Shown here piece by piece: positions 18,561 to 50,405 of a DNA stretch of 64,000 nucleotides. This DNA is from an uncultured Chloroflexia bacterium (lineage in GTDB: Bacteria; Chloroflexota; Limnocylindria; Limnocylindrales; CSP1-4): positions 32,273 to 96,272 of the forward strand of contig CAVRFU010000013.1 in NCBI GenBank assembly GCA_963720495.1. The letters run 5' to 3'. The translations under genes were made by a program, and so were the position numbers. The notes beneath the pieces were generated by a model that saw only the letters and a program-made list of their open reading frames with translations, did not search any database and was not told where the DNA came from. Within the stretch, counting starts at the first letter, position 1. Each line of letters opens with the position of its first letter.

Positions 18561-18757
18561 GCGTCCCGGACCCGTTCGGGAACAGCGTCTAAGCGCGCCG
18601 ACACGTGGGCTAAGGCGGTCGACGGTCACAGGACCGTCGAAATGAGGTGTCGCGCGTGCCGTGGATAAGGACTTCGCTCGATGGAATCCGGCTTCCTCGG
18701 CCTCAACGTGAACGTCATCAAGCCCCGATGCCGGGACGAGTGAAAAGGAGCACCGAG

Positions 18758-18937: not shown

Positions 18938-18957
18938 GCGGCTGACCGGTCGGCCGT

Positions 18958-19374: not shown

Positions 19375-19479
19375 GGCGCCTCCCCTTGCGTGCGATCGAG
19401 CGCCATACCGCGCTCCCTTTCTAGCCTGCCTGAGCCGGCGGAGCGGCGCCGATGCGCCGACGGCGGCGGCCGATGCAGG

Positions 19480-19620
19480 CTCAGCGATGGGAGCCTCAGT
19501 CGCATCGTGACCGGGATGGGCGAGGACGCTGCGGGCGAGCTCTATGTCCTGACGAGGACACGACTCGGTCCGGTCGGGACGTCGGGCGAGGTCCTGAAGC
19601 TGGTCCCGCCGGGGAGCTAG
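19480..19620 (+). pseudogene. Orphan C-terminal fragment resembling a PQQ glucose/sorbosone dehydrogenase
   Basis: VTGMGEDAAGELYVLTRTRLGPVGTSGEVLKLVP* resembles the GSDH C-terminal blade; no N-terminal part upstream. Confidence 0.55.
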
Positions 19621-27397: not shown

Positions 27398-28131
27398 CGC
27401 CGGACGGTCGCCAGCACGGCGGCCTGGGCCTCGAACAGGCGCGCCAGCCCGCCATCGGCCAGGTCGAGCAGGCCGTCCGCGGCGGCCCGGTCGAAGGGCT
27501 TGCCCTCGGCGGTGCCCTGCAGCTCGACGTAGGCGCCGCCGTCCGTGCCGACCACGTTGAAGTCGACGTCCGCCCGAGAGTCCTCCGAGTAGTCGAGATC
27601 GAGCAGCGGCAGGCCGCCGACGAGCCCGACCGAGACGGCCGCCACCTTGGCCACCAGATGCCGCTCCATGCCGTAGGTGATGAGCGCCGCCGCCAGGGCG
27701 ACGTAGCCGCCCGTGATCGACGCGGTCCGGGTCCCGCCGTCGGCCTGGAGGACGTCGCAGTCGACGGTGATCGTCCGCTCGCCGAGACGGGTCAGGTCGA
27801 CCGCGTCGCGGAGCGAGCGCCCGATCAGCCGCTGGATCTCGTGGGTCCGGCCGCCGATCTTGCCCCTGACCGATTCGCGGTCCGTTCGCTCGGCGGTCGC
27901 GCGCGGCAGCATCGAATACTCGGCGGTGATCCAGCCGGTGCCCTTGCCGCGCAGGTGCGGCGGGACGCGGTCGACGATCGTCGCAGCGCACAGGACCTCG
28001 GTGTCGCCGACCCGGATCCGGCACGAGCCCTCGGCCCATTTCTGGACGCCCAGGGTGAACGAGACGGGTCGCAGGTCGTTGGGGCCGCGGCCGTCTGCGC
28101 GGACGGTGGCTGGTCGGTTGCCGATGGTCAC
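27394..28131 (-). CDS. rph: Ribonuclease PH
   Basis: RADGR...[62 protein letters not shown]-type motif, QGTAEG. Confidence 0.96.
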
Positions 28132-29300
28132 AGGGCTCTCTCCTCGATCTTGGCAGCATCCCACAGTGCGTCGAGTGCCTCGAAGTCGAGATCGCGCAGC
28201 GCGACACCACGCGCGGCGGCCCCCCGCTCGACGCTGGCGAAGCGCCGCCGGAACTTGGCGTTGGCGGCGCGCACGGCAGCCTCCGCCTCGATCCCGCGGC
28301 GGCGAGCGACGTTGACCAGCACGAACAGCAGGTCCCCGAACTCCTCGGCCCGCTCGGCGTCGTTCGTCGCGCGGCGCAGCTCGTCGGCCTCCTCGACGAC
28401 CTTGTCGAGCACGCCGTCGATGGTCGGCCAGTCGTAGCCGAGGTTGGCTGCCCGGTCCTGCATCTCCTGGCTCGCCGCGAGGGCCGGCATCGAGGGGCTG
28501 ATCCCGTCGAGGGCACTCTTCGGGGCCGCAGGCCCGCCGGAGCCCGCGTCGTCGTCGGCGGCATCAGCCGCAGCGGCGGCCCGCTCGTCGGCCTTGATCC
28601 GCTCCCACTGCCGGTTGACGTCCGAGGCGGTCCGGGCGACCGCGTCGCCGAATACGTGCGGGTGGCGCCGGACGATCTTGGAGGCGATCGCGGCCTGGAC
28701 GTCGGCGAGGTCGAAGACGCCGGCCTCGGCCGCCAGCTGGGCGTGAAGGACGACCTGCAACCAGAGATCGCCGAGCTCGCCCGCCAGCTCCCGGGTCGCA
28801 CCGGCCTCGAGCGCGTCGTACACCTCGTAGGCCTCCTCGAGGAGGTGCTTGCGCAAGGACGTGTGGGTCTGCTCGCGGTCCCACGGACAGCCGTCCGGCT
28901 GGCGCAGCCGGGCCGAGATCCAGGGCAGGGCCCACGGGCCGGCGGCGGCCAGCTCGGGCGCCACGGGCGCGAGATAGAGCGCACCCGCCAGGGTGGCCGC
29001 GTCCAGCGACCCGACGGTCAGGCCGTCATCGCCGCCGAACCGCCCGACCGGATGGTCGGCCGGGTAGAGCCGCCGGAGGACGGCGACGGGATCGTCACCG
29101 CCCGACCCGGCACGGCCCGGCAGCGGCGCGGCACCGTCGCCGTCGCTCGAGGCGCGCAGGGTCGCAAGCGGCACGATCAGGAGCGGCCGGGACGCCTCGA
29201 TCGGGATGCCGACCAGCGTCTCGGCCGCGACGACCTGGAGGCCCGTCGCCGGATCGAGTCCCCAGCGGAGTCGCGCCTCCGCGACGAGGGCGTCGAGCAC
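28128..29300 (-). CDS. mazG: MazG nucleoside triphosphate pyrophosphohydrolase with divergent N-terminal extension (YabN-like)
   Basis: [45 protein letters not shown], second domain EEFGDLLF...NAKFRRRF. Confidence 0.92.
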
Positions 29301-29313
29301 CCGCCCCCTCCGC

Positions 29314-31050
29314 TCAGCTGGTCGGGGTGGTGACGGATGGGTCGCGCGTGATCGTCGCGGCGCCCTTCTTGGCGTTGTACCACTTCGTGAAGGCGGTGGA
29401 GGTCAGCTCCTCGAGCTGCCTGCCCTCCGGGGTGCGCGTCTCCTCGGCGGCCACCTTGAACAGGTAGACGCCGTCGCCGGGCATGGTCACGACCGACGAC
29501 GTCTTGCCGATCGGCGCGGCGAAGATCGCATTGGTCAGGTCATCGGCCAGCTGGCCCTTGGCGACCCAGCCGAGATCGCCGCCGGAGCCGGCCGTCGGAG
29601 CGTTCGAGTTGTCGCGGGCGAGGACGCCGAAGTCCGCACCCTTGTCCGCCTGGTCCTTGAGCGCCTTGAGATGGTCCTCGTCGGTCGGGTGGTACATCAC
29701 CTGGATGACGTGCCAGCCGAAGGCGGACTTGACCGGTGGGAGGATCTGGCCGTCCTTGAGTCCGGGGGCGAGGATCGCCTTCTCGAACTCCGGGTCGACG
29801 CCGCTCGTGCTGTCGAAGAACGGGAGCTTGCCGCCGGTCCCGGTGGGACCCTGCGCCTGGGCTTCGTCGCTCTGCTTGCGGGCGATCGAGTCGAACAGGC
29901 TCGGGTTGCCCTGCAGGCTGGCGTAGGTGGCAAGGGCCTTGGCGCGGGCCGCCTCCCAGGACGGATCGGTGTCCGGGATCTGCGCGGCGCCGGAGGGGTC
30001 GCCCTTCGGGCTGTACAGGATGTGGCGCACCTTGATCGCGTCGGCGGCCAGGCCCGGCTCGGCCTCGCTGGTGTAGATCTCGGAGACCTTGCGCTGCGGC
30101 GCGGCGCCCGTGTAGTCGGCGACGATCTTGCTCTGGAGCTTGTCGTGCAGGACGTCCGCCGCGAGGGCGGCCTTGTACTTGTCGAGGGACACGCCGTCGT
30201 TGACGATCTTGGCCTGGTACGCGGAGTCGACCGCCTCGGGCGCGATGTCGGTCACCCGGCCGATCCGGAAGATGCCATCGGCACCCTGGACGACGGCCGT
30301 CGGCTTGTTGACCTCGGCGGCGAAGACCGCCTTCAGGTAATCCTCGTCGGCCTGCTTGTCGTCCGCCGCGATCCAGCCCAGGTCGCCGGCCTGACCCGCG
30401 GTCGAGGCATCGGTCGACGTGGTCTTGGCGACGTCGTCCCAGGACTTGCCGCCGTTCAGGTCCGCCAGCGCCGCGTCGGCGACCGACTTGGCGGCCGCGA
30501 TCTGGGCGGCGGTCGGCTGCACGGCGCCGAGGTCGGTCGACGGCTTGACCTCGATGACGTAGGCGTGGCGGGTCTCGGGCGTCGTCGCCTCGGTGACCAG
30601 CCGCGCATCGATGTCCTCGGGCGTCGCGCTGACGCCTTCCTGCGTCGCGAGCTTGGCCTGGAGCTTGGCGTCGATCAGGCGCTCGAGCGAGACGGACGGC
30701 AGCTGCTGGCGCACCTGGGCGTTGGTCTGCGTCTGGGTCGTGCCCTGGGCCTCGGTCAGGTGGCCGGCCGCGACCGCGGTGGCGGTCCGCCGGTCGGCCT
30801 CGTCGAGCCGCCAGGCGTCGATCGCCAGCCGGTCCTTGAGGTCGTCCTTGCTGATCGACTGGCCGTCGACGCTGCCGACCGACGCGAGGTGGTCGTTGTA
30901 GTAGGCCAGCCCGGCCGCGACGCCGAGGATGACGACGGCGAGGACGACGATCAGGCCGAAGCCGAGGTTGAGGTAGAAGTTGCGCCGGTCCTGGGCTTCC
31001 CACGCTGGTCGGTGGGCGCGCTTCACGACGGGCTTGGCACGGAAGGTCAT
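29314..31050 (-). CDS. Membrane-anchored parvulin-type peptidyl-prolyl isomerase (SurA/PrsA-like, multiple rotamase domains)
   Basis: N-terminal TM, AGDLGWI, IKVRHILY, GGKLPFF, KSAFGWHVIQ, GGDLGWV. Confidence 0.9.
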   Translation of the reverse strand: MTFRAKPVVKRAHRPAWEAQDRRNFYLNLGFGLIVVLAVVILGVAAGLAYYNDHLASVGSVDGQSISKDDLKDRLAIDAWRLDEADRRTATAVAAGHLTEAQGTTQTQTNAQVRQQLPSVSLERLIDAKLQAKLATQEGVSATPEDIDARLVTEATTPETRHAYVIEVKPSTDLGAVQPTAAQIAAAKSVADAALADLNGGKSWDDVAKTTSTDASTAGQAGDLGWIAADDKQADEDYLKAVFAAEVNKPTAVVQGADGIFRIGRVTDIAPEAVDSAYQAKIVNDGVSLDKYKAALAADVLHDKLQSKIVADYTGAAPQRKVSEIYTSEAEPGLAADAIKVRHILYSPKGDPSGAAQIPDTDPSWEAARAKALATYASLQGNPSLFDSIARKQSDEAQAQGPTGTGGKLPFFDSTSGVDPEFEKAILAPGLKDGQILPPVKSAFGWHVIQVMYHPTDEDHLKALKDQADKGADFGVLARDNSNAPTAGSGGDLGWVAKGQLADDLTNAIFAAPIGKTSSVVTMPGDGVYLFKVAAEETRTPEGRQLEELTSTAFTKWYNAKKGAATITRDPSVTTPTS

Positions 31051-31146
31051 GGTCTGGGTCGATTTCCTGTCACATGGCCGGCTGACGCCGGGGATGGAGG
31101 GCCGCGGTATGGTACACCGCCCCCTCGGGAAGCCGTGTCCGCAGCC

Positions 31147-32325
31147 CTATCGTCGATCTCCCGCCCGGGTCAATGACGGGACGATGAGCGCCTCCGTGAC
31201 GCGTGTTGCGGAACCTCCATCTGCGACGTCGAACGAGGCGGCCCGAAACCGCTCCACGCGCTCGAGATCGAAGACACCGGCCCGCAGGTACGCGGCCAGC
31301 TCCGCGGTCGTCTCGAAGATCGGGCCGGGCACGCCGGTCCGGTAGTCGAAGTAGAAGCCGCGCTCGCGCTCGTACGCCTCGTAGTCCGGCGCGAAGAAGA
31401 CCATCGGCCGGTGCAGCAGGGCGAACTCGAAGATCGCGCTCGAGTAGTCGGTCACGAGCACGTCGCTCACGAGCATCAGCTCGTTGATGTCGGGGTGATC
31501 CGAGACGTCGATCGCGAAGTCCGCGAGGTCCGGGCCGATCGGCGTGGCGGACCGGATGAACGGGTGCAGCCGGACGAGCAGGACGTGGTCCGCGTCGAGG
31601 GCGTCACGCAGGACCCGGAGGTCGAGGTCGTCCGTGGCGCGGGCGTCGGTGACGCTGTCGCCGCGGAAGGTCGGCGCGTACAGGATGACCCGGCGGCCGT
31701 CGGTCAGGCCGTATCGCTCGCGGACGGCGGCTCGCGTCCGGGCCAGGTGCTCCTCGCCGAAGAGCACGTCCGTCCGCGGGATGCCCAGGTCCGACCGAAA
31801 CCGCTCGAGCGGCTGGCGGAACGCCTCCGCGTAATGCGGCGCGGCGGTCTGCGAGGCGACGAGGCAGACGTCGTAGTTCGAGTGGATCCGGACCCGGCTG
31901 GCGAGCGCCTCGTCCACCCCGAACGACTTGTCCAGCACGCTGTAGCCGACCTTCTTGAACGCGCCGCAGGCGTGCCACGTCTGGACGATCGTCGTGCCCG
32001 GCCGCTTGCGGATCACATAGATCGGGAAGAAGTAGTCGTCCACGATGAACACCCGCGAGGTCGCCAGGTAGTAGCCGGCGACGACCGCGTGCCAGGCCGC
32101 GGCGATCCGGCCGCGGCCACCGACGCCCGGCCGGTGGGCGAGGGTCACGACCGGGATCCCCGGACGGCGCGCCGCCAGGTCGTCCGCGATGGCCGCCAGG
32201 TTGCCGCCGAGCCGCGGGGCGTGGGCGGTCGCGAGCACGACCCGCGAGCGGAGCGGCAGGCGGCGCCCGAACGCGAACGCCGCCCGGACGAGCACGATCC
32301 GGATCGTCAGCACGAGATCGTTCAT
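31147..32325 (-). CDS. CDP-glycerol/ribitol glycerophosphotransferase family (TagB/TagF-like)
   Basis: VDDYFFP, QTWHACGAFKKVG, GIPRTD, ILYAPTFRG, LHP, SDVLVTDYSSAIFEF, RGFY. Confidence 0.92.
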   Translation of the reverse strand: MNDLVLTIRIVLVRAAFAFGRRLPLRSRVVLATAHAPRLGGNLAAIADDLAARRPGIPVVTLAHRPGVGGRGRIAAAWHAVVAGYYLATSRVFIVDDYFFPIYVIRKRPGTTIVQTWHACGAFKKVGYSVLDKSFGVDEALASRVRIHSNYDVCLVASQTAAPHYAEAFRQPLERFRSDLGIPRTDVLFGEEHLARTRAAVRERYGLTDGRRVILYAPTFRGDSVTDARATDDLDLRVLRDALDADHVLLVRLHPFIRSATPIGPDLADFAIDVSDHPDINELMLVSDVLVTDYSSAIFEFALLHRPMVFFAPDYEAYERERGFYFDYRTGVPGPIFETTAELAAYLRAGVFDLERVERFRAASFDVADGGSATRVTEALIVPSLTRAGDRR

Positions 32326-32335
32326 CCGGACCGCC

Positions 32336-33892
32336 TCACCGGGCCAGGATCAGCTGGTCGATGACGCGGTCGGTCGAGCCGCTGTCGAGATGCGCGAAGT
32401 GGCGCGCCGCGAAGTCGTCCACCTTGGACGCCTCGTAGTCGTCGCGGCGGATCGCGTCGACCATCTCCGCGAACGTCCGGACGATCCGGCCGGGCACGAA
32501 CAATTCGAACGGGACGTAGAAGTCGCGTGTCGCCACGTAGTCCTCGAGGTCGTAGGCGAAGAACAGCATCGGCCGGCGGAGGGTCGAGTACTCGAACACG
32601 ATCGATGAATAGTCGGTCACCAGGAGGTCGACCGCGAACAGGAGGTCGTTGACGTCCACCGGCCGGGTGGAGCCGTCGATCAGGCGGTCCCGGAACGCCT
32701 CCGGGATGCGGACCGGCTCGAGCACGAACGGGTGCATCTTGATGATGATCGTCGCGTCGCGCTCGACCGCCAGCGCGTGGAGCGCCGCGTAGTCGAGCAG
32801 CTCGAACGCGTACGACGCCTCCCGGATCGTGTCGCCGCGGTACGTGGGCGCGAACAGGATCGTCCGGCGCCCGACGATCTCCGGGTACGCCGCCCGGGCG
32901 GCAGCCAGCCCCTCGGCCTGCGCCCTCGCGTCGAAGAACCGGTCCATCCGGGGGATGCCGGTCGGGATGACCCGTGCTTCGGGGATGCCGAACGCCTCGG
33001 CGTAGAAGGGCACGTCGAACTCCGAGCTGACGATCGCCGCGGTGTACTTCCGGTGGACGCGGACGTTCGGGTCCGGCAGGCCGATCCGGCTGAAGCCCAC
33101 GGTCTTGAACGCGCCCGAGGCGTGCCACAGCTGGATGATCCGGACCGCCGGCGACAGCCTGACCCAGTCGAGCGGCGGGAACGAATCGTCGAGGACGATC
33201 ACGTCGGCGCCGGCCAGGGCACGGGCGAGCCGCAGCCGGTCGAGGAAGCTCCAGCGCTCGGTGAGCCCGGGCTTGAGCATCACCGTCAGGTCCGCCTCGC
33301 GATCGAGGCCGCGTTCGACCATCCGGGCGTTGACGACCTGGAGGTTGCCCGACATCTCCGAGATGAGACGCGAGGTGAACAGGACGCGCGGCTTGCTCCG
33401 CCGGGTGACCAGGCGCGACGCCGACACGAGGGCACGGAAGGCGGCCCGCCGGATCCGGGTGACGCGGCGCACGGGCTTGCGGACGCGATCCGCGGCGTCG
33501 AACGCGACATCGATCGTGAGAGTCCTCGCCGTCGCGTCCACCGCGGGAGCCATGCGGTAGGACCCATTCGTGAGGGTGAACGAGCCCGGCTCCGGGCGCG
33601 CCGTCGGCAGGGACGGGGCCGGGAGGACGGCGGCGCGGAGCGTCCAGCGGCCGGCTCCCAGCGGCTCGAGGCCCGGACCGACCAGCACGTTGAACCGGGC
33701 CGTGAGGCGATCGCCGTCGATCGTCGCGCGTGTCGGTGGCATCGCCTCGCCGCCGGCGGCGTCGGGGACGAGGTCGAGCGACGACAGGTCGAGCGTGACA
33801 CCGGCCGGCACACGGGCCTCGACGATGAGCTGGACGCGCTCCCAGCGGATGGCGTCGACCTCGATCGCGGGCTCCCGTGGCTCGTCGGCCAT
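32336..33892 (-). CDS. CDP-ribitol/glycerol phosphotransferase (TarK/TarL/TagF-like) with extra N-terminal domain
   Basis: QLWHASGAFKTVG, GIPRMD, ILFAPTYRG, KMHP, LLVTDYSSIVFEY, RDFY. Confidence 0.92.
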   Translation of the reverse strand: MADEPREPAIEVDAIRWERVQLIVEARVPAGVTLDLSSLDLVPDAAGGEAMPPTRATIDGDRLTARFNVLVGPGLEPLGAGRWTLRAAVLPAPSLPTARPEPGSFTLTNGSYRMAPAVDATARTLTIDVAFDAADRVRKPVRRVTRIRRAAFRALVSASRLVTRRSKPRVLFTSRLISEMSGNLQVVNARMVERGLDREADLTVMLKPGLTERWSFLDRLRLARALAGADVIVLDDSFPPLDWVRLSPAVRIIQLWHASGAFKTVGFSRIGLPDPNVRVHRKYTAAIVSSEFDVPFYAEAFGIPEARVIPTGIPRMDRFFDARAQAEGLAAARAAYPEIVGRRTILFAPTYRGDTIREASYAFELLDYAALHALAVERDATIIIKMHPFVLEPVRIPEAFRDRLIDGSTRPVDVNDLLFAVDLLVTDYSSIVFEYSTLRRPMLFFAYDLEDYVATRDFYVPFELFVPGRIVRTFAEMVDAIRRDDYEASKVDDFAARHFAHLDSGSTDRVIDQLILAR

Positions 33893-34049
33893 CCACGCTC
33901 CTTGTCGGTCGGGCCGCGGGATCGTCGCGCCCAGTCGCGGATGATAGCCCGGCTGCGACCGGGCCTGCGGTTTCGCGTACCCTCAGGCGGACAGTCATCC
34001 GAGCCGCGACGGGCTCAGCGGAGCAGGGCCGAGCGCACCGGAGGTTCGC

Positions 34050-34739
34050 ATGAAGATCGGGATGATCGTGCTCGCCGGAGGGGTCGGCAAACGCATCGGC
34101 CGGCCGTTCCCGAAGCAGTTCCTGCTCCTGGGCGGCAAGCCGCTGATCATCCACGTGCTGGAGAAGGCGCGGCTGATCCCGGCCATCGAACGGGTCGTCG
34201 TCACCTGCCCGGAGAGCCATCTCGACGAGACGCGGACGCTGATCGACAACCACGGCTTCGATGCGGCCAGGTTCAGCTGCATCGTCGGCGGTGGGTCGCG
34301 CCAGGAGTCGGTCTACCGGGGGCTCGAGGCCCTCGATGACACCGACACGGTCATCGTCCACGAAGCCGTCCGTCCCCTCGTCACCGCCGATGAGTTCCGC
34401 GAGCTGATCGCGGCCGAGGAGGGCAACGCGATGTTCGGGATCCCGATCCCGTTCACCGTCCTCAAGGGCCACGAGTACGTCGAGGACCTCCTGGAGCGGG
34501 ACGAGCTGGTCAACGTCCAGCTCCCCCAGAAGTTCGACCGGGCCAAGCTGATGGCCGCCCACGAAGCGGCGCGGCGCGACGGGGCATTCTTCACCGAGGA
34601 CGCCAGCCTCTTCCACCGCTACGCAGGTGAGCGGGTCCGGATCCTGCCCGGCTCCGAGCGCAACATCAAGATCACCGTCCCGACCGACATCGTGACCGCC
34701 GAGGCGATCTACGCCGACGTCATCGGCCGCAGGGGCTGA
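34050..34739 (+). CDS. IspD/TarI-family cytidylyltransferase
   Basis: LAGGVGKRIG...PKQFL, GGGSRQESV, HEAVRP, VQLPQKF, NIKIT. Confidence 0.9.
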   Translation: MKIGMIVLAGGVGKRIGRPFPKQFLLLGGKPLIIHVLEKARLIPAIERVVVTCPESHLDETRTLIDNHGFDAARFSCIVGGGSRQESVYRGLEALDDTDTVIVHEAVRPLVTADEFRELIAAEEGNAMFGIPIPFTVLKGHEYVEDLLERDELVNVQLPQKFDRAKLMAAHEAARRDGAFFTEDASLFHRYAGERVRILPGSERNIKITVPTDIVTAEAIYADVIGRRG

Positions 34740-34740
34740 G

Positions 34741-35445
34741 ATGGGCAAGGTCTGCGTGATCACCGGGGCCAGCCAGGGCATCGGGCGGGCCGCGGCGGTC
34801 CGGATGAGCCGTGAGCCGAACGTCGGCTCGATCGTGCTCGTCGCGCGCAACGGGGAGGGACTGGACGGCACCGTCGCCGAGATGGACCGTGACGGGAAGC
34901 GGATCGAGGCGATCCCCTACGACCTGATGGACCTCGACGGGATCCCCGCCCTCGTCGATCGCATCCAGCGCGACTACGGGAGCATCGACATCCTGCTCAA
35001 CATCGCGGGCTACGCCGATCCGCGGTCGCTCCTCGACACGAGCACCGACAACATCGTGAAGACCTACACCATCAACGTCTTCGCGATGCTGGTCCTCATC
35101 CGCGAGGCCACCCGCCACATGTACGACCGGGGCGGCAAGATCCTCAACGTCGCATCGACGGCCGGCATCACCTCGCGACCGGGCTGGCTGGCGTACGCCT
35201 CGTCCAAGGCGGCGGTCGTGTCGCTGTCCGCGACCCTCGCGGACGAGCTGGCCGGCAGCGGGATCAAGATCTACAGCATCTCGCCGGGGCGAACGGCCAC
35301 CGAGCTGCGCCGCAAGCTGGCGCCGGAGGAGGACCCCTCGACGATCATGCAGCCGGGCCAGGTGGCCGACGTCATCGCCCAGCTGATGAGCGACGACGAG
35401 GTCACCCTCGACGGCCAGAACATCATCGTCCGCACGCGGGCCTAG
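34741..35445 (+). CDS. SDR oxidoreductase, probable ribulose-5-P reductase for CDP-ribitol
   Basis: ITGASQGIG, LLNIAG, NVAS, YASSK, SPGRTAT; starts 1 nt after the IspD-like gene. Confidence 0.8.
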   Translation: MGKVCVITGASQGIGRAAAVRMSREPNVGSIVLVARNGEGLDGTVAEMDRDGKRIEAIPYDLMDLDGIPALVDRIQRDYGSIDILLNIAGYADPRSLLDTSTDNIVKTYTINVFAMLVLIREATRHMYDRGGKILNVASTAGITSRPGWLAYASSKAAVVSLSATLADELAGSGIKIYSISPGRTATELRRKLAPEEDPSTIMQPGQVADVIAQLMSDDEVTLDGQNIIVRTRA

Positions 35446-35453
35446 ACCGGCGG

Positions 35454-36632
35454 ATGCGCCCGCTCGAATACCGGCTGGCGAGCGCTCTCCTCCGCTTCGT
35501 GCGCCTCTTCGCGTCGCGGCTGGCCATCCAGTCCGACAAGGTGGTCCTGGCCACGGCCCGGGTCCCGACCCTGGATGGAAATCTGCTCCACCTCCACCGG
35601 GCGATGCGAGCGCGGCACCCCGAGCTCCGCTACGTGCTCCTCCTCGAGCCCTACAGCTACGGCCTGGCCGGCAAGCTGGCCTACCTCGTCCGGCTCGTGC
35701 GCGGGATGTACCACCTCCAGACCGCCCGCCTGTTCGTCACCGACAACGCCTACCTGCCGATCCACGTCGCGCCACACCGGCGGCGGACGACGGTCGTCCA
35801 GGTCTGGCACGCCGCCGGGGCGCTCAAGCGGTTCGGGCTGGACACGACGGTGCCGATCGCGGAGCCGGAGCGGACGTTCCTGCATCGCTACTACGACGCG
35901 GTCGTCGTCGGTGGCGAGTGGACGCGCGGACCGTATGCGGCCGCCCTCCGGACGCCGATGGAGCGGGTCATCGCCCTCGGCTCGCCCCGGACCGACTCCT
36001 TCTTCGATGACGCGGCCCTGGCCGCGGCACGCGGACGGGTGCTGGCGGCCCATCCCGAGCTCGCCGGGCGGCGGGTGGTCCTCTACGCCCCGACGTTCCG
36101 GGGCCGCGGGGTCGGCAAGCGGGCGGCCACCGGGCTCGACGCCGCAGCGCTGCGGGCCGCCCTGCCCGCCGGCGATGCGCTGGTCCTAAAGACCCACCCC
36201 AACCTGGATCCGGCCGCCACGCCGACGGCCGGCTACGACGTCGTGGCCGACCCGACGGCCGAGATCAACGACCTGCTCGCCCTGACCGACATCCTCATCA
36301 CCGACTATTCGTCGTCGGTCATCGAGTTCGCCCTCCTGCGCCGGCCGATCGTCCTGCTCGTCGGCGACCTGGCCGAGTACGAGGTGGACCCGGGGCTCTA
36401 CCTCGACTACCGGACCGACATGATCGGGACCCAGGTGACCGACACGGCCGGGGTGATCGATGCGATCGTCGGCGATCGGTTCGACCTCGCCGGGTACGAC
36501 GCGTTCATCACCCGGCAGCTGGGTGCCGCGCGGGGCGGTGCCAGCGACCGCTTCGTCGACCGGTTCCTGGAGGGCGGGCCGGGGTCCGGCCAGCGAGGTG
36601 ATACTCTTCCGCCCGATGTCCGCCACGAGTGA
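35454..36632 (+). CDS. CDP-glycerol glycerophosphotransferase family (TagB-like)
   Basis: TDNAYLP, QVWHAAGALKRFG, GSPRTD, LYAPTFRG, HP, LITDYSSSVIEF, GLY. Confidence 0.9.
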   Translation: MRPLEYRLASALLRFVRLFASRLAIQSDKVVLATARVPTLDGNLLHLHRAMRARHPELRYVLLLEPYSYGLAGKLAYLVRLVRGMYHLQTARLFVTDNAYLPIHVAPHRRRTTVVQVWHAAGALKRFGLDTTVPIAEPERTFLHRYYDAVVVGGEWTRGPYAAALRTPMERVIALGSPRTDSFFDDAALAAARGRVLAAHPELAGRRVVLYAPTFRGRGVGKRAATGLDAAALRAALPAGDALVLKTHPNLDPAATPTAGYDVVADPTAEINDLLALTDILITDYSSSVIEFALLRRPIVLLVGDLAEYEVDPGLYLDYRTDMIGTQVTDTAGVIDAIVGDRFDLAGYDAFITRQLGAARGGASDRFVDRFLEGGPGSGQRGDTLPPDVRHE

Positions 36633-37500
36633 GGTCCCGGCAGCCTTTCGCAATGCCGCCGGGGAACGGGGTCCCCTTCGACTCATCGGCGAGGCCATCT
36701 CGGACATCCGTTCCCGCCAGCGCCTGGTCCGCTATCTGGTCCAGGCCGACATCCGCCGGCGTGGCACGGACACCGTGCTGGGCAATGTCTGGTGGGTTCT
36801 CGACCCGCTCCTCCAGATGGTCGTCTACGTCGTCTTCGTGACGATCATCGCGCCACGCAAGGTGCCCGACTACCCGCTGTTCATCTTCGCCGCGATCCTG
36901 CCCTGGAAGTGGTTCACCTCGTCGATCGGCGATGCGACGTCGTCGATCGTCGGCAAGGACCAGCTGATCAAGCAGATCCAGTTCCCGAAGATCGTCCTGC
37001 CGACGGCGGCGGCGGTCGCCGGCATCGTCAGCTTCTTCTTCGGACTCGCGGCGCTCGGACTGCTGATGCTGTTCTACCCGGATCGGATCTCGCCATACCT
37101 GGTGCTGATCCCGGTCATCGCGAGCGTCCAGTTCGTGTTCACCCTCGCGTGCGCCTACCTGGTCGCCGCCGGAAACGTGTTCTTTCGCGACCTGGGCAAC
37201 GTCGAGGGCCACCTGATGCGCCTGTGGTGGTTCCTGTCACCGGGCCTGTACAGCCTGGCCGCGCTGGACGAGCTGGGGATCTTCCAGTCGCATCCGTTCC
37301 TGCGGACGCTGGCCGGCGCCAATCCATTCGCGATCCTGTTCGAGGCCTATCGGATGGTGATCTACGGGACGCCGGAAGGCCTGCCCGGGCTGCCCAACTT
37401 TGCCTCGCTCGCGGCATTGCTGGTGGCGAGCATCGGTTTCCTCGGCCTGACCACGATCGTGTTCAAGCGCCTCGAGCCCAACTTCGCCAAGGTGATCTGA
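36616..37500 (+). CDS. ABC-2 polysaccharide/teichoic acid exporter permease (TagG/Wzm)
   Basis: RRRGTDTVLGNVWWVLDPL, LIKQIQFPKIVLP, FFRDL, NPFAILFEAYR. Confidence 0.92.
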   Translation: MSATSEVPAAFRNAAGERGPLRLIGEAISDIRSRQRLVRYLVQADIRRRGTDTVLGNVWWVLDPLLQMVVYVVFVTIIAPRKVPDYPLFIFAAILPWKWFTSSIGDATSSIVGKDQLIKQIQFPKIVLPTAAAVAGIVSFFFGLAALGLLMLFYPDRISPYLVLIPVIASVQFVFTLACAYLVAAGNVFFRDLGNVEGHLMRLWWFLSPGLYSLAALDELGIFQSHPFLRTLAGANPFAILFEAYRMVIYGTPEGLPGLPNFASLAALLVASIGFLGLTTIVFKRLEPNFAKVI

Positions 37501-38339
37501 TGGCCGTCGAGAAACGGCCGCCGCGGATGGATCGAGGTGCCGACTACGCGATCACCGCGAGCAACGTGGGCGTCAAGTACGACCTCCGCTTCACCAGGAA
37601 GACGACGGTCCGTGGGTCGATCGCCCAGATGCTCGGACGCGGCCACATCGACAAGTTCTGGGCGCTTCGCAACGTCGACCTGCACGTCCGGCGCGGCGAA
37701 TCGCTGGCGGTCATCGGCCCGAACGGCGCAGGCAAGAGCACGTTGCTCCAGGTCCTGGCGGGGATCATCCACCCGTCCGAGGGCGCGGTCGACGTCTTCG
37801 GCCACGTGTCCGGCCTGCTGACGCTGGGCGCCGGCTTCGACAAGGACCTGACCGGTCGCGACAACATCCTGCTCGGTGGCGCGTTCCTCGGTCTCGACGA
37901 TCACGTGACCCGCGAGCTGCTGCCGTCGATCATCGACTACGCCGAGCTCGGCGAGTTCATCGAGGCGCCGCTCAAGACCTATTCGTCGGGCATGCGCGCC
38001 CGGCTCGGCTTCGCGATCGCGACGTCGGTCGACCCGGACATCCTCCTGCTCGACGAGGTCCTCGCGACCGGCGACGCCAACTTCCGGGCCAAGTCCAAGA
38101 CCCGCGTCCTCGACATCGTGGGTGCCGCCAAGGCTGTCGTCCTCGTCACCCACGACATGGGCTGGGTGACCGAGTACTGCAACCGGGCCATCCTCATCGA
38201 GCAGGGCGTCGTGGTCATGGAGGGCGAGCCGGCCGAGGTGGTCGAGCTCCACCAGGCGCACCAGGCCGAGGCCCGCGCCCGGAACGCCGCGGCCGCAATC
38301 GCGGCCGGTGTCGATCCGCGGATCGTGAAGGTCCGCTGA
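37500..38339 (+). CDS. ABC exporter ATPase (TagH/Wzt), no C-terminal carbohydrate-binding domain
   Basis: FWALRNV, GPNGAGKSTL, PLKTYSSGMRARLGFA, LLLDEVLATGD, VTHD. Confidence 0.94.
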   Translation: MAVEKRPPRMDRGADYAITASNVGVKYDLRFTRKTTVRGSIAQMLGRGHIDKFWALRNVDLHVRRGESLAVIGPNGAGKSTLLQVLAGIIHPSEGAVDVFGHVSGLLTLGAGFDKDLTGRDNILLGGAFLGLDDHVTRELLPSIIDYAELGEFIEAPLKTYSSGMRARLGFAIATSVDPDILLLDEVLATGDANFRAKSKTRVLDIVGAAKAVVLVTHDMGWVTEYCNRAILIEQGVVVMEGEPAEVVELHQAHQAEARARNAAAAIAAGVDPRIVKVR

Positions 38340-38357
38340 GGGACGCTCAGCGGATGG

Positions 38358-39134
38358 TCAGCGGCGGCGGAGGATCGCCGCGACGAGCCCGGCGATGCCG
38401 GCGATCACCAGGGTCCCGCGCCAGTCGAGCAGCGGCTTGACCTCGCCGTCGACCCGCGCGGCGATCACCACGCCGGCGATGCTCCGCCGCTCGAAGGTGA
38501 CTTTCCCGGCAGCCAGGTTCCAGACCGCGCCTTGATCGATCCGGACCTCGCGGGCGAAGAGGTTCCGGACGAACGACTGGCTCACCCGGGCCTCACCGGC
38601 GAGCGCGACACCGACGCCACTCATCTCGGCGGTGACCCGATCCGCCCGGGCGAGCCCGATGCCGCCCATGGTCACCGAGACGTCCTTGGCGGCCGCCTGC
38701 GCGATGCCGCCCATCCGAACGTCGACCTGGGAGGCCTCGACGTGGGTGATCCCGCCCTGCGTGACGGTGACCTGCTGGGCCTGGGCGGTCTCGACGCCGC
38801 CGTTGGTGATGTTGATGACCTCGGGCCGCGTCTCGCTCGTTGCCGTCACGGCGGTCGGTGCCGTCGGTCGCGCGGCCGGCGCGGATGTCGTTGCGGCGCG
38901 CGAGGCCGTGGCTGTCGGTTGGGATGCCGGTTTGGGCGTCGGTTTGGCGCTGGGCTTCACGGCTGAGGCCGGCGCGCTCGCTGTCGTCTTCGCGGCTGAG
39001 GCGGAGGCGCTCGCGGCCGGTTTGGCGCCGCTGGGTGGCTTGGCAGCGGTCGTTCGCGCCCGCGTCACCTTCGGCTTCGCTACCTCGTCGGCGTCGGCCT
39101 TGGCTGGATCGTCACTCGCGGGTCGATCGGTCAT
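38358..39134 (-). CDS. Hypothetical protein: Ala/Pro/Lys-rich N-terminus, about eight 15-aa repeats, C-terminal membrane anchor
   Basis: Repeats such as AQAQQVTVTQGGITH / VEASQVDVRMGGIAQ / AAAKDVSVTMGGIGL; ends LVIAGIAGLVAAILRRR; TAGGCT 6 nt before ATG. Confidence 0.75.
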   Translation of the reverse strand: MTDRPASDDPAKADADEVAKPKVTRARTTAAKPPSGAKPAASASASAAKTTASAPASAVKPSAKPTPKPASQPTATASRAATTSAPAARPTAPTAVTATSETRPEVINITNGGVETAQAQQVTVTQGGITHVEASQVDVRMGGIAQAAAKDVSVTMGGIGLARADRVTAEMSGVGVALAGEARVSQSFVRNLFAREVRIDQGAVWNLAAGKVTFERRSIAGVVIAARVDGEVKPLLDWRGTLVIAGIAGLVAAILRRR

Positions 39135-39335
39135 GGACCTAGCCTATCGCGGGTCGGCCGGCAATGCGAGCGCCAGGGCAAGGACAGGCCCGGACGCGGC
39201 CCGTCGGCCGCCGTGATGGGCGTCATACGCCTTTCCTTGCGTCCTCGGCTATCCTGCGCCAAGCCACGGTCGCGGCGTGTCGCCCCGGGCACGACCGGCG
39301 CCATGGCCATCGCATGATCTGGAGGAGCCACCGGG

Positions 39336-40544
39336 ATGCAACGGAACGCGACCATCGGGATCGTCGGCGTCGTCGTCGTGTCGGCCCTCGTCGTCGGCAT
39401 CGGCGCCACGGCGCTGGGCAACCCGGCCGCCTCCGCCCGGCCGTCGGCAGTGGCCCAGGTCCCGACCGCCACGCCGGCTCCCACGACCTCGGGCACGCCG
39501 GAAGCGACCGTCGAACCGACCGCCTCGCCGAGTCCGACCCCCGTCCCGACGCCCACCCCGGTCCCGACGCCCGTCACGGTCCCGGGGCCGCTCACCGGTC
39601 GACCCCTCTCGCCGGCCGTCGCCAAGCGGCATCCGATCGCGGTCATGATCGATGACCTCGGCGCGGCGCGGCCGCAGTCCGGCCTGTCGTCCGCCTCGGT
39701 CGTCTGGCAGGCCCCGGCGGAAGGCGGCATCCCGCGCTACATGGCGATCTTCCAGGACAGCCTGCCCAAGGAGATCGGCCCGGTCCGCAGCTCCCGCTAC
39801 TACTACATCGCCTGGGCCGCCGAGTGGCGCGCGGTCTACGCGCACGCCGGTGGCTCGCCGCAGGCGAAGGCAACGCTGGCCGCCAAGGGTCGCGGGCAGT
39901 ACGTCTACAACATCGACGAGTTCCGCTACAGCGGGACCTTCGGCCGGGTCACCTTCCGGTCCGCCCCGCACAACCTGTACACGACCGGCGCAAAGCTCAG
40001 GGCCGCCGGGAAGCACCAGGGGTCCAAGGACAAGGCCTACACGGCAGCCTGGACCTTCGCCCCGGATGCGCCGCTCGACGCCCGGCCGGTCGGCGGGACG
40101 ATCACGATCAAGTACCCCTACAACACCATCGGCTACGTCTACGACCGCAAGACCAACACGTACCTGCGCTCCGTCACGGGCGAGAAGAAGGAGACGGACA
40201 AGGGCACCGGCGTCCGGATCGCGCCCAAGAACGTCGTGGTGATGCGCATGCGGTTCGGTCCGCTCAATGACGGTCACCCCGGCGCACCACGGCTCGAGGC
40301 GACCGTCGTCGGGAGCGGGCCCGCCTGGGTCTTCACCAACGGGAAGACGATCAAGGGCACCTGGAAGAAGACCGCGATCACCAAGCCGACCCGGTTCTAC
40401 GACAAGAACGGCAAGGCGATCCCGCTGACCATCGGCCAGACCTTCGTCCAGGTGATCCCGGGCAACTACCCGTTCTCGTACAAGGCCGGGACGAACCCGC
40501 CGCCCGCCGGCGCCACCCCGAGCGGGAGCCCCGCGCCGAGCTGA
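39336..40544 (+). CDS. DUF3048 (YerB-like) extracellular protein
   Basis: N-terminal hydrophobic anchor, PT linker, PLTG, PIAVMID, ARPQSGL, AEGGIPRY, GPVRSSR, APHNLY, GQTFVQV. Confidence 0.88.
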   Translation: MQRNATIGIVGVVVVSALVVGIGATALGNPAASARPSAVAQVPTATPAPTTSGTPEATVEPTASPSPTPVPTPTPVPTPVTVPGPLTGRPLSPAVAKRHPIAVMIDDLGAARPQSGLSSASVVWQAPAEGGIPRYMAIFQDSLPKEIGPVRSSRYYYIAWAAEWRAVYAHAGGSPQAKATLAAKGRGQYVYNIDEFRYSGTFGRVTFRSAPHNLYTTGAKLRAAGKHQGSKDKAYTAAWTFAPDAPLDARPVGGTITIKYPYNTIGYVYDRKTNTYLRSVTGEKKETDKGTGVRIAPKNVVVMRMRFGPLNDGHPGAPRLEATVVGSGPAWVFTNGKTIKGTWKKTAITKPTRFYDKNGKAIPLTIGQTFVQVIPGNYPFSYKAGTNPPPAGATPSGSPAPS

Positions 40545-40557
40545 GCCGACCGGCAGG

Positions 40558-41874
40558 TCAGCGGGCGTCCGTCGCCCGGACGCCGACCTCCGCGTAGATC
40601 CGCCGCGTCTCGATCGCGACGTCGGCCCACGTCCGCGTCTGCCATGCGGCGCGCTCGCGAGCGCTGGCGACGAGCCGGGCGTGGACGGCGTCATCCGCCC
40701 AGATCGTCGTCAGCGCCACGGCCAGCCGGTCCGGATCGCCGGGTTCGACGAGGAGCCCCGCCGGTCCGACGATCTCCGGCAGCGGTCCCACCGCTGAGGC
40801 GACGACCGGGGTCCCGCAGGCGATCGCCTCGATGACCGGCAGGCCGGCCGCCTCGGAGACGACGGGGAGGACCACCGCTCGAGCGGCCCGGACGAGCTCG
40901 ACCTGTTCCGCGACGGCCAGGCTCGGGGCGTAGGCGAGGGCCTCGCCGACCCCCTTGCGTGCGGCGGCCCGGGCGACCGACGCCCGGTCCTCCGGGGTCG
41001 CCCCGAGGAGAAGGACCCGCGGCGGCCACGCCACATCCGGCTCGAGACCGGCGGGCCGGCCGGCCCGCGCCAGGCGAGCGAGGGCGGACAGGAGCGTGGT
41101 CAGGTCGAGGCGGGCATCGAAGCGGCCGGAGAACGCGAGGTACCGACCCGTCACGCCGAGCCGCTGACGGATCTCCGAGGGCGCCCCAGGCGACGTGACC
41201 GACGAGGTCCCGGGCGAACCGACCGGGGCGGGCGCGAACCCGGCACGGGGCGCCAGCGGCACGACCCGGACACGGCTCCCCCGGATCCGGATCAGGCGGC
41301 GCGCCGCGGCTGCCGTGGCGTCGCTGCCGACGATGACGGCGGCCGCCTCGCGCAGCAGCTGCGCCCGCAGCCGCTGGCCGAACCGGCTGGCCAGCGAGCG
41401 CTGGAACGCATCCGGCAGCTCCCACGGCGCGAGATCGAGCAGGGTGACCACCACGGGCAACCCGGAGGCGATCGGGAGCGGGCCGCCCCCGATGGCGTGA
41501 TAGACGGCGCCCGCCGCGCCACCGCGCTCGGCTCGCCAGGTCGACCCGATCGCCGCGCCACGCAACACGAACGGATCGACGGTCATGGCCCCGGACCGGA
41601 GCAGGCGGGTCGGGGGCAGCTGGCGGCGCCCGACGACCTCGAGGTGGCCGAACCGCGGAGTCGGGTCGTCGAGATCCGACGCGATCAGGAAGGCGAACGA
41701 CTCGCCCGCGAGCGGCGCCGCATCGAAGGCCCCGAGCAGACCGTCCAGGTAGGCCGCCGCCAGCGGGGCGCGATCGGGCGCCTGGAGCGGGCGCGCGTCG
41801 AGGATCACGCGGACGCCGGCCGGGAGCGCCCCTTCGGAGCCGCCGCCCAGCCGGCCGGCGGCCGGACCGGTCAC
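40558..41874 (-). CDS. Glycosyltransferase family 4 (GT-B)
   Basis: VILDARPLQ, VVVTLLDLAPW, VRVVPLA, SEAAGLPVIEAIACGTPVVAS; GTG overlaps the upstream TGA. Confidence 0.88.
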   Translation of the reverse strand: MTGPAAGRLGGGSEGALPAGVRVILDARPLQAPDRAPLAAAYLDGLLGAFDAAPLAGESFAFLIASDLDDPTPRFGHLEVVGRRQLPPTRLLRSGAMTVDPFVLRGAAIGSTWRAERGGAAGAVYHAIGGGPLPIASGLPVVVTLLDLAPWELPDAFQRSLASRFGQRLRAQLLREAAAVIVGSDATAAAARRLIRIRGSRVRVVPLAPRAGFAPAPVGSPGTSSVTSPGAPSEIRQRLGVTGRYLAFSGRFDARLDLTTLLSALARLARAGRPAGLEPDVAWPPRVLLLGATPEDRASVARAAARKGVGEALAYAPSLAVAEQVELVRAARAVVLPVVSEAAGLPVIEAIACGTPVVASAVGPLPEIVGPAGLLVEPGDPDRLAVALTTIWADDAVHARLVASARERAAWQTRTWADVAIETRRIYAEVGVRATDAR

Positions 41875-42659
41875 GATCGGCGGCGGCGCGTCAGGCGGGC
41901 GAGGAGCTCCTCGGCCCGGAGCTGGACGACCACGACCAGCGCCTCGACGACGATCCGCCGGCTCATCTTGGACTGCCCGACACGGCGGTCGCGGAAGGTG
42001 ATCGGCACCTCGCGGATCCGGGCGCCGGCCCGGCTCGCCCGGAAGGTCATCTCGATCTGGAAGACGTAGCCGCCGGCATGGACCCCGTCGAACGGGACCG
42101 CCGCGAGCGTCGTGCCGCGCCACGCCTTGAACCCGCCGGTCAGGTCGTTCTGGCCCAGACCGAGCACGATCCGCGCGAAGAGGCTGCCGCCGCGTGACAC
42201 GATCCGCCGGCCGAGCCCCCAGTCGACGACGCCGCCGCCGGGCGTGTAGCGGGAGCCGATGACGAGATCGGCCGTGTCGCCGGCGATCGGGGCGACCAGG
42301 CCGGGCAGTGCCGCGGGGTCGTGGCTGAAATCGGCATCCATCTGGACGACCGTGGTGGCGCCGCCGGCCAGCGCCACGCCGAAGCCGTCCAGGTAGGCGC
42401 GTCCGAGGCCCTGCTTGAGGGCGCGATGGCGGACGCGGATGCGCGGGTCGGCCGCCGCCAGCGCGTCGGCGAGGCGGCCCGTGCCGTCCGGCGAGCCATC
42501 GTCGACCACGAGGACCGTGGCCGCGGGCAGCGCCTCGAGGATCGCGGCCGTCATCGGGCCGACGTTCTCGGCCTCGTTGTAGGTCGGCAGGACGATCCAG
42601 ACCCGGTCCTCGGGCGCGGCCGGAGCCGGCTCGATCGTCGTCGGGCTGGGGTCGATCAT
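41871..42659 (-). CDS. Polyprenol monophosphomannose synthase-like GT2 (Ppm1/DPM1 family)
   Basis: VLPTYNEAEN, VVDDGSPDGT, GLGRAY, QMDADFSH, DLVIGSRY, DLTGGFK, GYVFQIE, EVPITFRDRRVGQSKM. Confidence 0.92.
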   Translation of the reverse strand: MIDPSPTTIEPAPAAPEDRVWIVLPTYNEAENVGPMTAAILEALPAATVLVVDDGSPDGTGRLADALAAADPRIRVRHRALKQGLGRAYLDGFGVALAGGATTVVQMDADFSHDPAALPGLVAPIAGDTADLVIGSRYTPGGGVVDWGLGRRIVSRGGSLFARIVLGLGQNDLTGGFKAWRGTTLAAVPFDGVHAGGYVFQIEMTFRASRAGARIREVPITFRDRRVGQSKMSRRIVVEALVVVVQLRAEELLARLTRRRRS

Positions 42660-42691
42660 GGACGCCAAGTCTAGTCGGGTCGCGTGGGCGG

Positions 42692-47849: not shown

Positions 47850-48426
47850 TCAGAGAGGTTCGTGGCGCAGGCGCACCACGAGGTCGGCCAGCGGCGGATT
47901 GGTCAGATCCCGCTCGGAGAGGATCGGCCGCCCGTCGGGCGTCGCCTCGAGGACGGGCCAAGGAACCGCGACCGCCGGGTCGTCCCAGGCGAAGCCGAGC
48001 TCGTCCGAGCCGTCGTACTCGTTGGTGACCAGATAGACCAGCTGGAGGGGCTCGATCGCGAGGAACCCGTGGGCGACCCCGGTCGGGATCGAGACCCAGC
48101 CGTCGGCCGCCAGCTCGCGGGTCTCCACGACCGCCGGACCCGTGCCGGCCAGCGCCGGCCGGACGTCGACGAGCGCGACCAGCGCCCGGCCTTCCGCGAC
48201 GATCCAGAGGTCGTCCTGGCGTCGGTGGAGATGGAGCCCGCGGAGGACCCCGGCGGCCGAGGTGGACAGGTTGGCCTGGACGAAGGTCGCCGCCCGGGAA
48301 CTGGCCCGCCCGCCACAGCTCGCGGAACGAGCCACGGGCGTCGCCGTGACGGGCGATCGATCCGTAGCTGACCCCAGGCAGGATCGAGCCGGACGGGCCG
48401 GTCGCCGGGGCGTCGTCCTGTGTCAT
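47850..48426 (-). CDS. rfbC: dTDP-4-dehydrorhamnose 3,5-epimerase; apparent frameshift near 48295
   Basis: HGDARGSFRELW in one frame; FVQANLSTS..GVLRGLHLH, LVDVR, IPTGVAHGF, WDDP, ILSERD in the next. Confidence 0.88.
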
Positions 48427-50404: not shown

Positions 50405-50405
50405 C

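Follow-up and report, generated by a model that had tools for sequence, protein, structure and literature searches.

A conserved accessory Tar-type gene cluster of Limnocylindria as a candidate pathway for a poly(ribitol-phosphate) wall glycopolymer

Does any member of the phylum Chloroflexota make a teichoic acid? An evolutionary essay treats these polymers as confined to Actinobacteria and Firmicutes (PMC7203096). Our literature searches on Chloroflexi/Chloroflexota gave no biochemical characterisation, in agreement with an earlier note on the DNA studied here, which was made from the sequence alone and knew of no characterised teichoic acids in the phylum. Teichoic and lipoteichoic genes are mentioned at the annotation level in a Litorilinea genome announcement (PMC8793728), and LytR-CpsA-Psr (LCP) proteins are listed in Chloroflexi by a review (PMC7831098). 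We analysed a 64,000-nucleotide stretch (the window) of contig CAVRFU010000013.1 of assembly GCA_963720495.1, from an uncultured bacterium of soil, in which positions 31147-38339 carry three TagF-family phosphotransferases (GPT1, GPT2 and GPT3), a cytidylyltransferase-reductase pair and an ATP-binding cassette (ABC) transporter. This locus is a real, conserved, accessory Tar-type cluster of the class Limnocylindria with machinery of a well-known kind. With moderate confidence we read it, from its sequence, as an apparently complete gene set for making a teichoic-acid-type wall glycopolymer, a poly(ribitol-phosphate), that would be exported by the ABC transporter and bound to peptidoglycan; the remaining doubt concerns the length of the polymer, the identity of the polyol and the attachment to peptidoglycan.

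The cluster and its phosphotransferases

Genes were called from the G+C content by codon position together with profile searches, as the window's G+C of 71% produces many spurious open reading frames (ORFs). The core cluster and the nearby ligase candidate consist of the following features (SDR, short-chain dehydrogenase/reductase).

31147-32325, minus strand: GPT1, TagF-family phosphotransferase, 392 amino acids (PF04464, 266 bits)
32336-33892, minus strand: GPT2, predicted TarL-type polyol-phosphate polymerase, 518 amino acids (PF04464, 234 bits)
33893-34049, no strand: divergent intergenic spacer of 157 bp between two operon-like groups (gene coordinates)
34050-34739, plus strand: IspD-family cytidylyltransferase paralog (PF01128, 159 bits)
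34741-35445, plus strand: classical SDR reductase with TGxxxGIG and YxxxK motifs (PF00106, 158.8 bits)
35454-36632, plus strand: GPT3, TagF-family phosphotransferase, 392 amino acids (PF04464, 181 bits)
36616-37500, plus strand: ABC-2 (type V) permease of the Wzm/TarG kind, six helices (weak Wzm match, fold matches)
37500-38339, plus strand: ABC ATPase of the TarH/Wzt kind, 279 amino acids, without a C-terminal carbohydrate-binding domain (Wzt/TagH profiles, PF00005)
24789-26168, plus strand: LCP ligase candidate with three N-terminal transmembrane segments (PF03816, 115.6 bits)

The gene set listed by the earlier note (three TagB/TagF-family enzymes, an IspD-like enzyme with an SDR, and an ABC pair lacking the Wzt C-terminal domain, divergently arranged) was recovered gene by gene at its coordinates, and tagO, tagA and tagD are indeed absent from the window. 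The SDR gene starts 1 nt past the stop of the cytidylyltransferase gene, and the pair is translationally coupled. The permease gene begins 17 nt before GPT3 ends, and the ATPase and permease genes share a TGATG overlap. No glycosyltransferase lies within the core cluster. A promoter and terminator consensus scan of positions 28000-40700 gave nothing above chance, and the 157-bp spacer held no sigma-70-like match.

The 3.32-Mb assembly of 14 contigs contains three PF04464 genes, all of them in the locus. GPT1, GPT2 and GPT3 score far beyond the PF04464 gathering cut-off of 22.1 bits and possess both catalytic histidines; those of the WH and (K/R)xHP motifs align to H444 and H584 of TagF. The NCBIfam profiles gave 205 (TarL), 138 (TarF) and 108 bits (TarB) for GPT1; 385 (TarL, positions 180-560), 106 (TarF) and 73 bits (TarB) for GPT2; and 113 (TarL) and 98.7 bits (TarB, cut-off 500) for GPT3. 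All three TarL scores lie below the 1000 bits set for the TarL equivalog NF041713, a model from Staphylococcus-like sequences. Compared with proteins of solved structure, GPT2 scored 326 bits against Staphylococcus aureus TarL (8va1, E 3e-96), followed by TagF (81 bits), Cps3D (53 bits) and Bcs3 (33 bits).

We inferred an IQ-TREE phylogeny of 64 catalytic domains, taken from the window, from orthologs in related loci and from Tar proteins of Lactiplantibacillus, with TarL, TagF and Cps3D represented by their aligned parts. GPT1, GPT2 and GPT3 formed three orthologous clades. S. aureus TarL was sister to GPT2 (support 100/99), GPT3 was a clade of its own (100/99), and the three clades together with TarL were set apart from TagF and Cps3D (98/99). 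The polymerase phylogeny that the earlier note had named as a check thus places GPT1-GPT3 with S. aureus TarL and not with TagF or the capsule polymerase Cps3D. The Gram-negative capsule polymerases Cps3D and Bcs3 share the catalytic GT-B fold and the chemistry of phosphotransfer from a CDP-polyol, but they are distant (53-79 bits to Cps3D, 33 bits to Bcs3). Cps3D falls outside the clade of GPT1-GPT3 and TarL, and the capsule enzymes are large, multi-domain proteins with Kps export. None of GPT1-GPT3 is a multi-domain polymerase that groups with Cps3D or Bcs3, the mark of a group 2 capsule system.

Polymerases of the TarL family carry an extra N-terminal domain (PMC10901376). The AlphaFold2 model of GPT2 (mean confidence score, pLDDT, 86.8) consists of a beta-sandwich at residues 10-133, a long amphipathic helix at 139-162 and then the GT-B domain. 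Foldseek placed full-length TarL 8va1 at the top of its matches (E 4e-45), and the N-terminal domain matched 8v33 and 8v34, the isolated domains of TarL and TarK. GPT1 and GPT3 consist of the GT-B domain only. The catalytic Trp-His is followed by a loop that differs between the kinds of enzyme: GAF marks transferases of ribitol phosphate, PL those of glycerol phosphate, and GAL or GSL the primases TarB/TagB (PMC10901376). This loop is WHACGAFK in GPT1, WHASGAFK in GPT2 and WHAAGALK in GPT3. About 90% of the orthologs in each clade retain their loop, with GAF in approximately 48 of 54 GPT1 orthologs and GAL in approximately 38 of 43 GPT3 orthologs. GPT2 combines, in its predicted structure, all the features that distinguish TarL and TarK, namely the Ig-like N-terminal domain, the amphipathic helix, the GT-B domain and the GAF loop. 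Sequence, tree and predicted fold all identify GPT2 as a TarL-type polymerase.

Polyol activation, lipid carrier and export

A separate ispD gene on another contig (C6) scores 190.7 bits and passes the TIGR00453 cut-off of 181.3 bits, and the locus cytidylyltransferase, at approximately 175 bits (174.8-175.1), falls just under it. Because the separate gene passes, we regard the locus enzyme as a paralog. In relatives, the paralog always stands alongside the SDR and GPT3, and metagenomes contain natural IspD-SDR, IspD-SDR-GPT and SDR-GPT fusions. One more distant IspD-SDR fusion is named as a ribitol-5-phosphate 2-dehydrogenase/cytidylyltransferase, that is, a Bcs1-type CDP-ribitol synthase; the cytidylyltransferase and SDR of the window are 34% and 28% identical, respectively, to the fusion annotated as a Bcs1-type enzyme. 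Among 44 related clusters, the split pair occurs in 28 and a fused Bcs1-like protein in 9, the two being swapped beside orthologous GPT1 and GPT3, and 4 loci have both. The Bcs1-like protein of these loci is 41-44% identical to the named ribitol-5-phosphate dehydrogenase/cytidylyltransferase. Fused IspD-SDR ORFs of approximately 455 amino acids were also seen adjoining GPT2 in four related loci (L023, L025, L029 and L031).

Bcs1/Acs1 of Haemophilus influenzae is a bifunctional IspD-like and SDR CDP-ribitol synthase (Zolli 2001; Pereira & Brown 2004, as cited in PMC10918830). The window pair has the same two domains in the same order, cytidylyltransferase then SDR, and related Limnocylindria loci hold the fused form in its place; unlike Bcs1/Acs1, the window pair is encoded by two separate genes, whose translational coupling is read from the sequence. 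These comparisons suggest that the IspD paralog is probably a CDP-polyol synthase, namely a ribitol-5-phosphate cytidylyltransferase, and that the SDR is its probable ketose-phosphate reductase. The GAF loops of GPT1 and GPT2, the natural fusions and the swapping of the split pair with the Bcs1-like protein favour ribitol as the polyol.

In regards to the lipid carrier, PF00953 has two members in the genome: mraY, which sits in the dcw cluster, and a gene for a WecA/TagO-like protein of 378 amino acids (127 bits, cut-off 326) on contig C9, unlinked to the locus and next to glyA.

The ABC ATPase scored 185 bits against the mycobacterial Wzt/RfbE profile and 178 and 166 bits against TagH profiles, all below the equivalog cut-offs. 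The permease gave no match in the Pfam search and a weak Wzm match (24.5 bits) in NCBIfam, and its AlphaFold2 model is of low confidence (pLDDT 60.8). We therefore take its assignment from the list of fold matches, in which the top 15 solved structures are all Wzm (including mycobacterial Wzm), TarG or KpsM; the E-values were 4e-7 and 1e-5 for Wzm and TarG and 4e-4 for KpsM. It is the only permease of the Wzm/TarG kind in the assembly. By profile and predicted fold, the pair has the properties of an exporter of the TarGH type, a type that cannot be told apart here from Wzm/Wzt. The LCP candidate scored 103.5 bits against TIGR00350 and 91.8 bits against TagU, in addition to its PF03816 match, and is syntenic in approximately 35 related loci.

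Proposed pathway and its alternatives

We propose the following pathway. The WecA-like enzyme would load N-acetylglucosamine (GlcNAc)-1-phosphate onto undecaprenyl phosphate, and a further sugar on the lipid carrier, if any, would have to come from another glycosyltransferase because TagA is absent. The SDR would reduce a ketose phosphate, most likely ribulose-5-phosphate, to the polyol phosphate, which the IspD paralog would convert with CTP to CDP-ribitol, the two acting as a split version of the Bcs1-type synthase. GPT3, with its GAL loop and no N-terminal domain, may prime the lipid-linked acceptor; GPT1, with a GAF loop and likewise no N-terminal domain, may add or extend ribitol phosphate; and GPT2, with the TarL architecture, would polymerise. 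No glycerol-phosphate linker would be formed, as there is no TagD. The ABC pair would export the lipid-linked polymer, and the LCP enzyme would then transfer it to peptidoglycan. The whole cassette may be an accessory module that can be exchanged for others within a variable locus for wall glycopolymers.

The nearest known system is the poly(ribitol-phosphate) wall teichoic acid of S. aureus and Bacillus subtilis W23 (TarO, TarA, TarB, TarF, TarIJ, TarK/L, TarGH and LCP). The window and its genome share with it a TarL-type polymerase with the predicted Ig-like N-terminal domain, amphipathic helix, GT-B domain and GAF loop, additional TagF-family transferases of the GT-B domain only, a dedicated pair of putative CDP-polyol synthase genes, an ABC exporter of two genes that lacks the Wzt C-terminal domain, and a candidate LCP ligase together with a TagO/WecA homolog. 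Unlike that system, the window genome lacks TagA and TagD and so the unit of N-acetylmannosamine (ManNAc), GlcNAc and glycerol phosphate (GroP); its reductase is an SDR and not a zinc-type TarJ; its cytidylyltransferase is nearer IspD than TarI; all three transferases are related to TarL and are not orthologs of TarB or TarF; and the host belongs to Chloroflexota, with an accessory locus that alternates with a sugar cassette. The tarIJKL loci of Lactiplantibacillus (L056 and L057) have a similar order, an IspD-like enzyme, a short TagF-family enzyme with a G(S/T)L loop and a TarL-like enzyme with a GAF loop, but identities are 28-37% and the flanks and the reductase family differ. The departures from the canonical pathway are the lack of TagA/TagD, the putative split Bcs1-type synthase, the three TarL-related transferases and the alternation with a sugar cassette; the known mechanism of teichoic acid synthesis is unchanged by these findings.

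Several observations weigh against the proposed polymer. The locus cytidylyltransferase aligns better with IspD of B. subtilis (5ddt, 127 bits) than with TarI (4jis, 97 bits), and therefore similarity alone does not give its substrate. It misses both NCBIfam cut-offs, scoring 127 bits against the 166 required for the ribitol-5-phosphate cytidylyltransferase NF001183, and the reductase of the pair is a generic SDR. For the ribitol-phosphate polymer suggested by the earlier note, the ribitol-type loop of GPT1 and GPT2 speaks in favour and the closeness of the cytidylyltransferase to true IspD speaks against. GPT1-GPT3 miss the TarB, TarF and TarL equivalog cut-offs, all widely. Of the linkage-unit genes that the earlier note had listed as absent from the window, the rest of the genome supplies the WecA/TagO homolog, and neither TagA (PF03808) nor TagD (TIGR01518) was found in this assembly, which is 76% complete. 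Among 17 locus-bearing Limnocylindria genomes (84-96% complete), TagA is absent in 14 and lies hundreds of kb from the locus in the other 3, and none of the 17 has a TagD above the cut-off. With TagA and TagD absent, the canonical ManNAc-GlcNAc-(GroP) linkage unit is not made, which suggests that Tar-type polymerases may use a different linkage unit; in regards to the acceptor for priming by GPT3, the adjacent GT4 and rhamnose genes are candidates only. GPT2 is missing from 15 of the 44 related clusters, so that a long polymer may not always be made. Finally, the LCP gene is also retained in genomes without the GPT cassette; its adjacency is not specific to the cassette, and its proximity is for this reason weak evidence for this polymer.

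The shortfall of GPT2 bears on a different product, in which single or few polyol-phosphate residues decorate a heteropolysaccharide, such as a rhamnose-containing wall polysaccharide or a glycoprotein glycan, and no poly(ribitol-phosphate) chain is built. The N-terminal domain that the TarL structure paper ties to polymerases (PMC10901376) is missing from two of the three transferases, GT4, GT2 and rfbABCD genes stand directly beside the locus, and Wzm is no worse a match to the exporter fold than TarG. We consider such decoration unlikely, since the window encodes a full enzyme of TarL architecture and the core cluster has no glycosyltransferase; moreover, the GT-B domain of TagF can polymerise by itself. 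A polymer that is made and exported but stays lipid-anchored or is released as a capsule or exopolymer, as in Gram-negative TagF-like capsule systems, appears distinctly improbable. The LCP gene lies 5 kb off in a different transcription unit and is kept with or without the cassette, and the permease has KpsM among its fold matches; against this stand the separation of GPT1-GPT3 from Cps3D and the low Bcs3 score, the single-domain transferases in place of multi-enzyme capsule polymerases, the better permease matches to Wzm and TarG than to KpsM, and the view of Chloroflexota as bacteria without a lipopolysaccharide outer membrane (PMC10608941, PMC8793728).

An activated polyol other than ribitol, such as erythritol-4-phosphate (the closest analogue of the natural IspD substrate), arabinitol-5-phosphate or a hexitol phosphate, is improbable but retained among the explanations because pairs of an IspD-family enzyme and an SDR also make other CDP-alditols, for example CDP-6-D-glucitol (PMC10918830). 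Such a polyol would suit the IspD-like character of the cytidylyltransferase, and the 4 related genomes with both the split pair and the Bcs1-like fusion could mean two products, but S. aureus also keeps two copies of its CDP-ribitol synthase (PMC10901376). Ribitol is favoured by the GAF loop of GPT1 and GPT2, the signature published for this polyol, by the sister position of GPT2 to an enzyme proven to polymerise ribitol phosphate, and by the interchange of split and fused synthases in otherwise orthologous clusters (28 and 9 loci). A last alternative concerns the host and not the polymer: a mis-binned contig of actinobacterial or bacillotal origin would make the host an ordinary one. A few related loci are labelled Coriobacteriia, Thermoleophilaceae or Eubacteriales, and high G+C is also typical of Actinomycetota, but the contig of the window is 241 kb long and its G+C equals that of the other 13 contigs. 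The closest GPT1 copies, found in GTDB contigs with one genome per species, are 60-97% identical and come from metagenome-assembled genomes (MAGs) whose titles read Ca. Limnocylindrales, Limnocylindria, "Chloroflexia" or Chloroflexota; several are on contigs 1-2.3 Mb long, including contigs labelled Chloroflexia, with the same locus and the same flanks. The Actinomycetota-labelled copies are just 57-62% identical, at 63-68% G+C. MreB, encoded on this contig, shares 86-88% identity with its nearest named relatives, from Ca. Limnocylindrales and Limnocylindria. The earlier assignment to Chloroflexota is thereby supported and narrowed to the class Limnocylindria, and we reject mis-binning, which is scarcely credible in view of the shared G+C, the relatives' contigs and the placement of MreB. 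The checks named by the earlier note thus gave results that were neutral or spoke for its reading.

Distribution, variable site and neighbouring genes

Across 401 evenly sampled species genomes of Chloroflexota, full-length matches (>100 bits) occurred in only 5 genomes, all of them Limnocylindria, and the best match outside the class was partial (48 bits). Among 401 Limnocylindria species genomes, 65 (16%) possess such genes, as do 30 of 177 high-quality genomes and 12 of 65 genera. The window's own genus has 9 genomes with transferase genes and at least 20 without. The locus is accessory and is not shared by the class as a whole. Synteny of the cluster is kept over approximately 40 genomes, with a variable middle: 29 of the 44 related loci possess GPT2, and additional GPT copies or a second synthase occur in some.

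Four of the same-genus genomes that lack the cassette were compared with the window. The PpiC-MazG flank is intact in all four, the LCP gene is also kept in the two that were checked further, and three of the four have a permease-ATPase pair 54-71% identical to that of the window. The adjoining 12 kb of one of these genomes (G444) encodes a 4,6-dehydratase (Polysacc_synt_2), an epimerase, a DegT aminotransferase, a GNAT protein, a GT4 and a UDP-sugar dehydrogenase. This amino-sugar/uronic-acid cassette beside PpiC (C3:712300-732200, 4000-19600) carries a homologous ABC exporter. In two cassette-negative genomes of the genus, a search reaching 20 kb from the ABC pair did not find the right-hand flank of the window (258-amino-acid protein, DUF3048, GT4 and rfb), and thus the shared flank is the LCP-MazG-PpiC side only. 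The kept flank, with a homologous exporter and a sugar cassette at the site, indicate that the cassette is one alternative at a variable wall-glycopolymer site. A bolder proposal, which we advance tentatively and hold to be rather doubtful, is that Limnocylindria make the first teichoic acid of Chloroflexota, with a linkage unit without ManNAc or glycerol phosphate, and that the ppiC/LCP-side locus is a serotype-like switch by which species of one genus have either a polyol-phosphate (teichoic) or an amino-sugar/uronic-acid (teichuronic-like) cassette, the ABC exporter being the same but in a separate version for each. The presence of the cluster in 16% of species and the alternative cassettes at one site point to diversification of surface polymers, probably under phage or predator pressure. 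Limnocylindria are uncultured and abundant in soils, lakes and other freshwater, the Chloroflexota envelope is poorly known, and the locus points to specific genes that could be expressed as candidates for making an anionic wall polymer.

MAG sequences labelled Coriobacteriia or Eubacteriales (63-67% G+C) are sister to those of Limnocylindria in all three transferase clades, which suggests transfer of the whole cluster between phyla at some time; the phylum given for the Coriobacteriia-labelled genomes is taken from their NCBI labels. A recent horizontal transfer is ruled out by composition, as the G+C at third codon positions of the cluster (0.89-0.97) equals that of the flanking genes. These MAGs (L036, L038, L039, L042 and L058) have a GPT3-SDR-IspD / GPT2-GPT1 core at 42-66% identity and other flanks.

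The surroundings reported by the earlier note, an LCP gene approximately 5 kb off and GT4, GT2, rfbABDC and mreBC nearby, were all found. The neighbouring features are as follows.

29314-31050, minus strand: PrsA/SurA-like parvulin foldase with an N-terminal membrane anchor (Rotamase domains)
38358-39134, minus strand: conserved neighbour of 258 amino acids without a family match (synteny)
39336-40544, plus strand: DUF3048 extracytoplasmic protein with a membrane anchor and a Pro/Thr linker (PF11258, 154.6 bits; PF17479, 89 bits)
40558-41874, minus strand: GT4 glycosyltransferase, a possible enzyme of linkage-unit or glycan synthesis (codon-position GC analysis; PF00534, 70.5 bits)
41871-42659, minus strand: GT2 of the polyprenyl-phosphate sugar synthase type (Ppm1/DPM1/GtrB-like), 262 amino acids (PF00535, 88 bits)
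47850-51569, minus strand: rfbC-rfbD-rfbB-rfbA for dTDP-L-rhamnose synthesis (PF00908, PF16363, PF00483; RmlD_sub_bind, 175 bits)

Ham1, RNase PH, MazG and the PrsA-like parvulin lie between the LCP gene and the cluster. The parvulin stands beside the locus in genomes with and without GPT genes and belongs to the flank, not to the cassette. The 258-amino-acid neighbour begins with a low-complexity region rich in Ala, Pro and Thr, continues with GG repeats (beta-helix-like) and ends in a membrane anchor; it matched nothing in Pfam or NCBIfam and adjoins the ABC ATPase in most cassette-bearing loci. The DUF3048 protein accompanies the cassette almost everywhere (44-80% identity in approximately 35 loci), and a functional link between it and the polymer is possible. 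The best NCBIfam matches of the GT2 are AglJ, PpgS and dolichyl-phosphate-hexose transferase. Beyond the rfb genes follow mreC and mreB, the MreB gene being 15 kb from the locus.

Three long reading frames elsewhere in the window were also noted. A type III glutamine synthetase (GSIII) gene lies inside a stop-free frame of 1335 codons (9540-13547, minus strand), of which just the C-terminal approximately 700 codons match GSIII domains, showing that long ORFs mislead at this G+C. The UPF0182 gene (57899-61850, minus strand) is split over two frames, with ORF 58632-61850 covering model positions 2-541 and ORF 57899-60067 positions 541-770; the switch near 59743 is probably an indel or an assembly error and not biology. 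One stop-free frame at 41871-45176 (minus strand) reads as a GH18 and FlgD-Ig secreted protein, approximately 90 nonsense-looking residues and then the GT2. A GH18-Ig-GT2 fusion was rejected on the translation, and the GT2 begins at an ATG of its own at 42659; the GH18 gene probably ends in a different frame, possibly through an indel.

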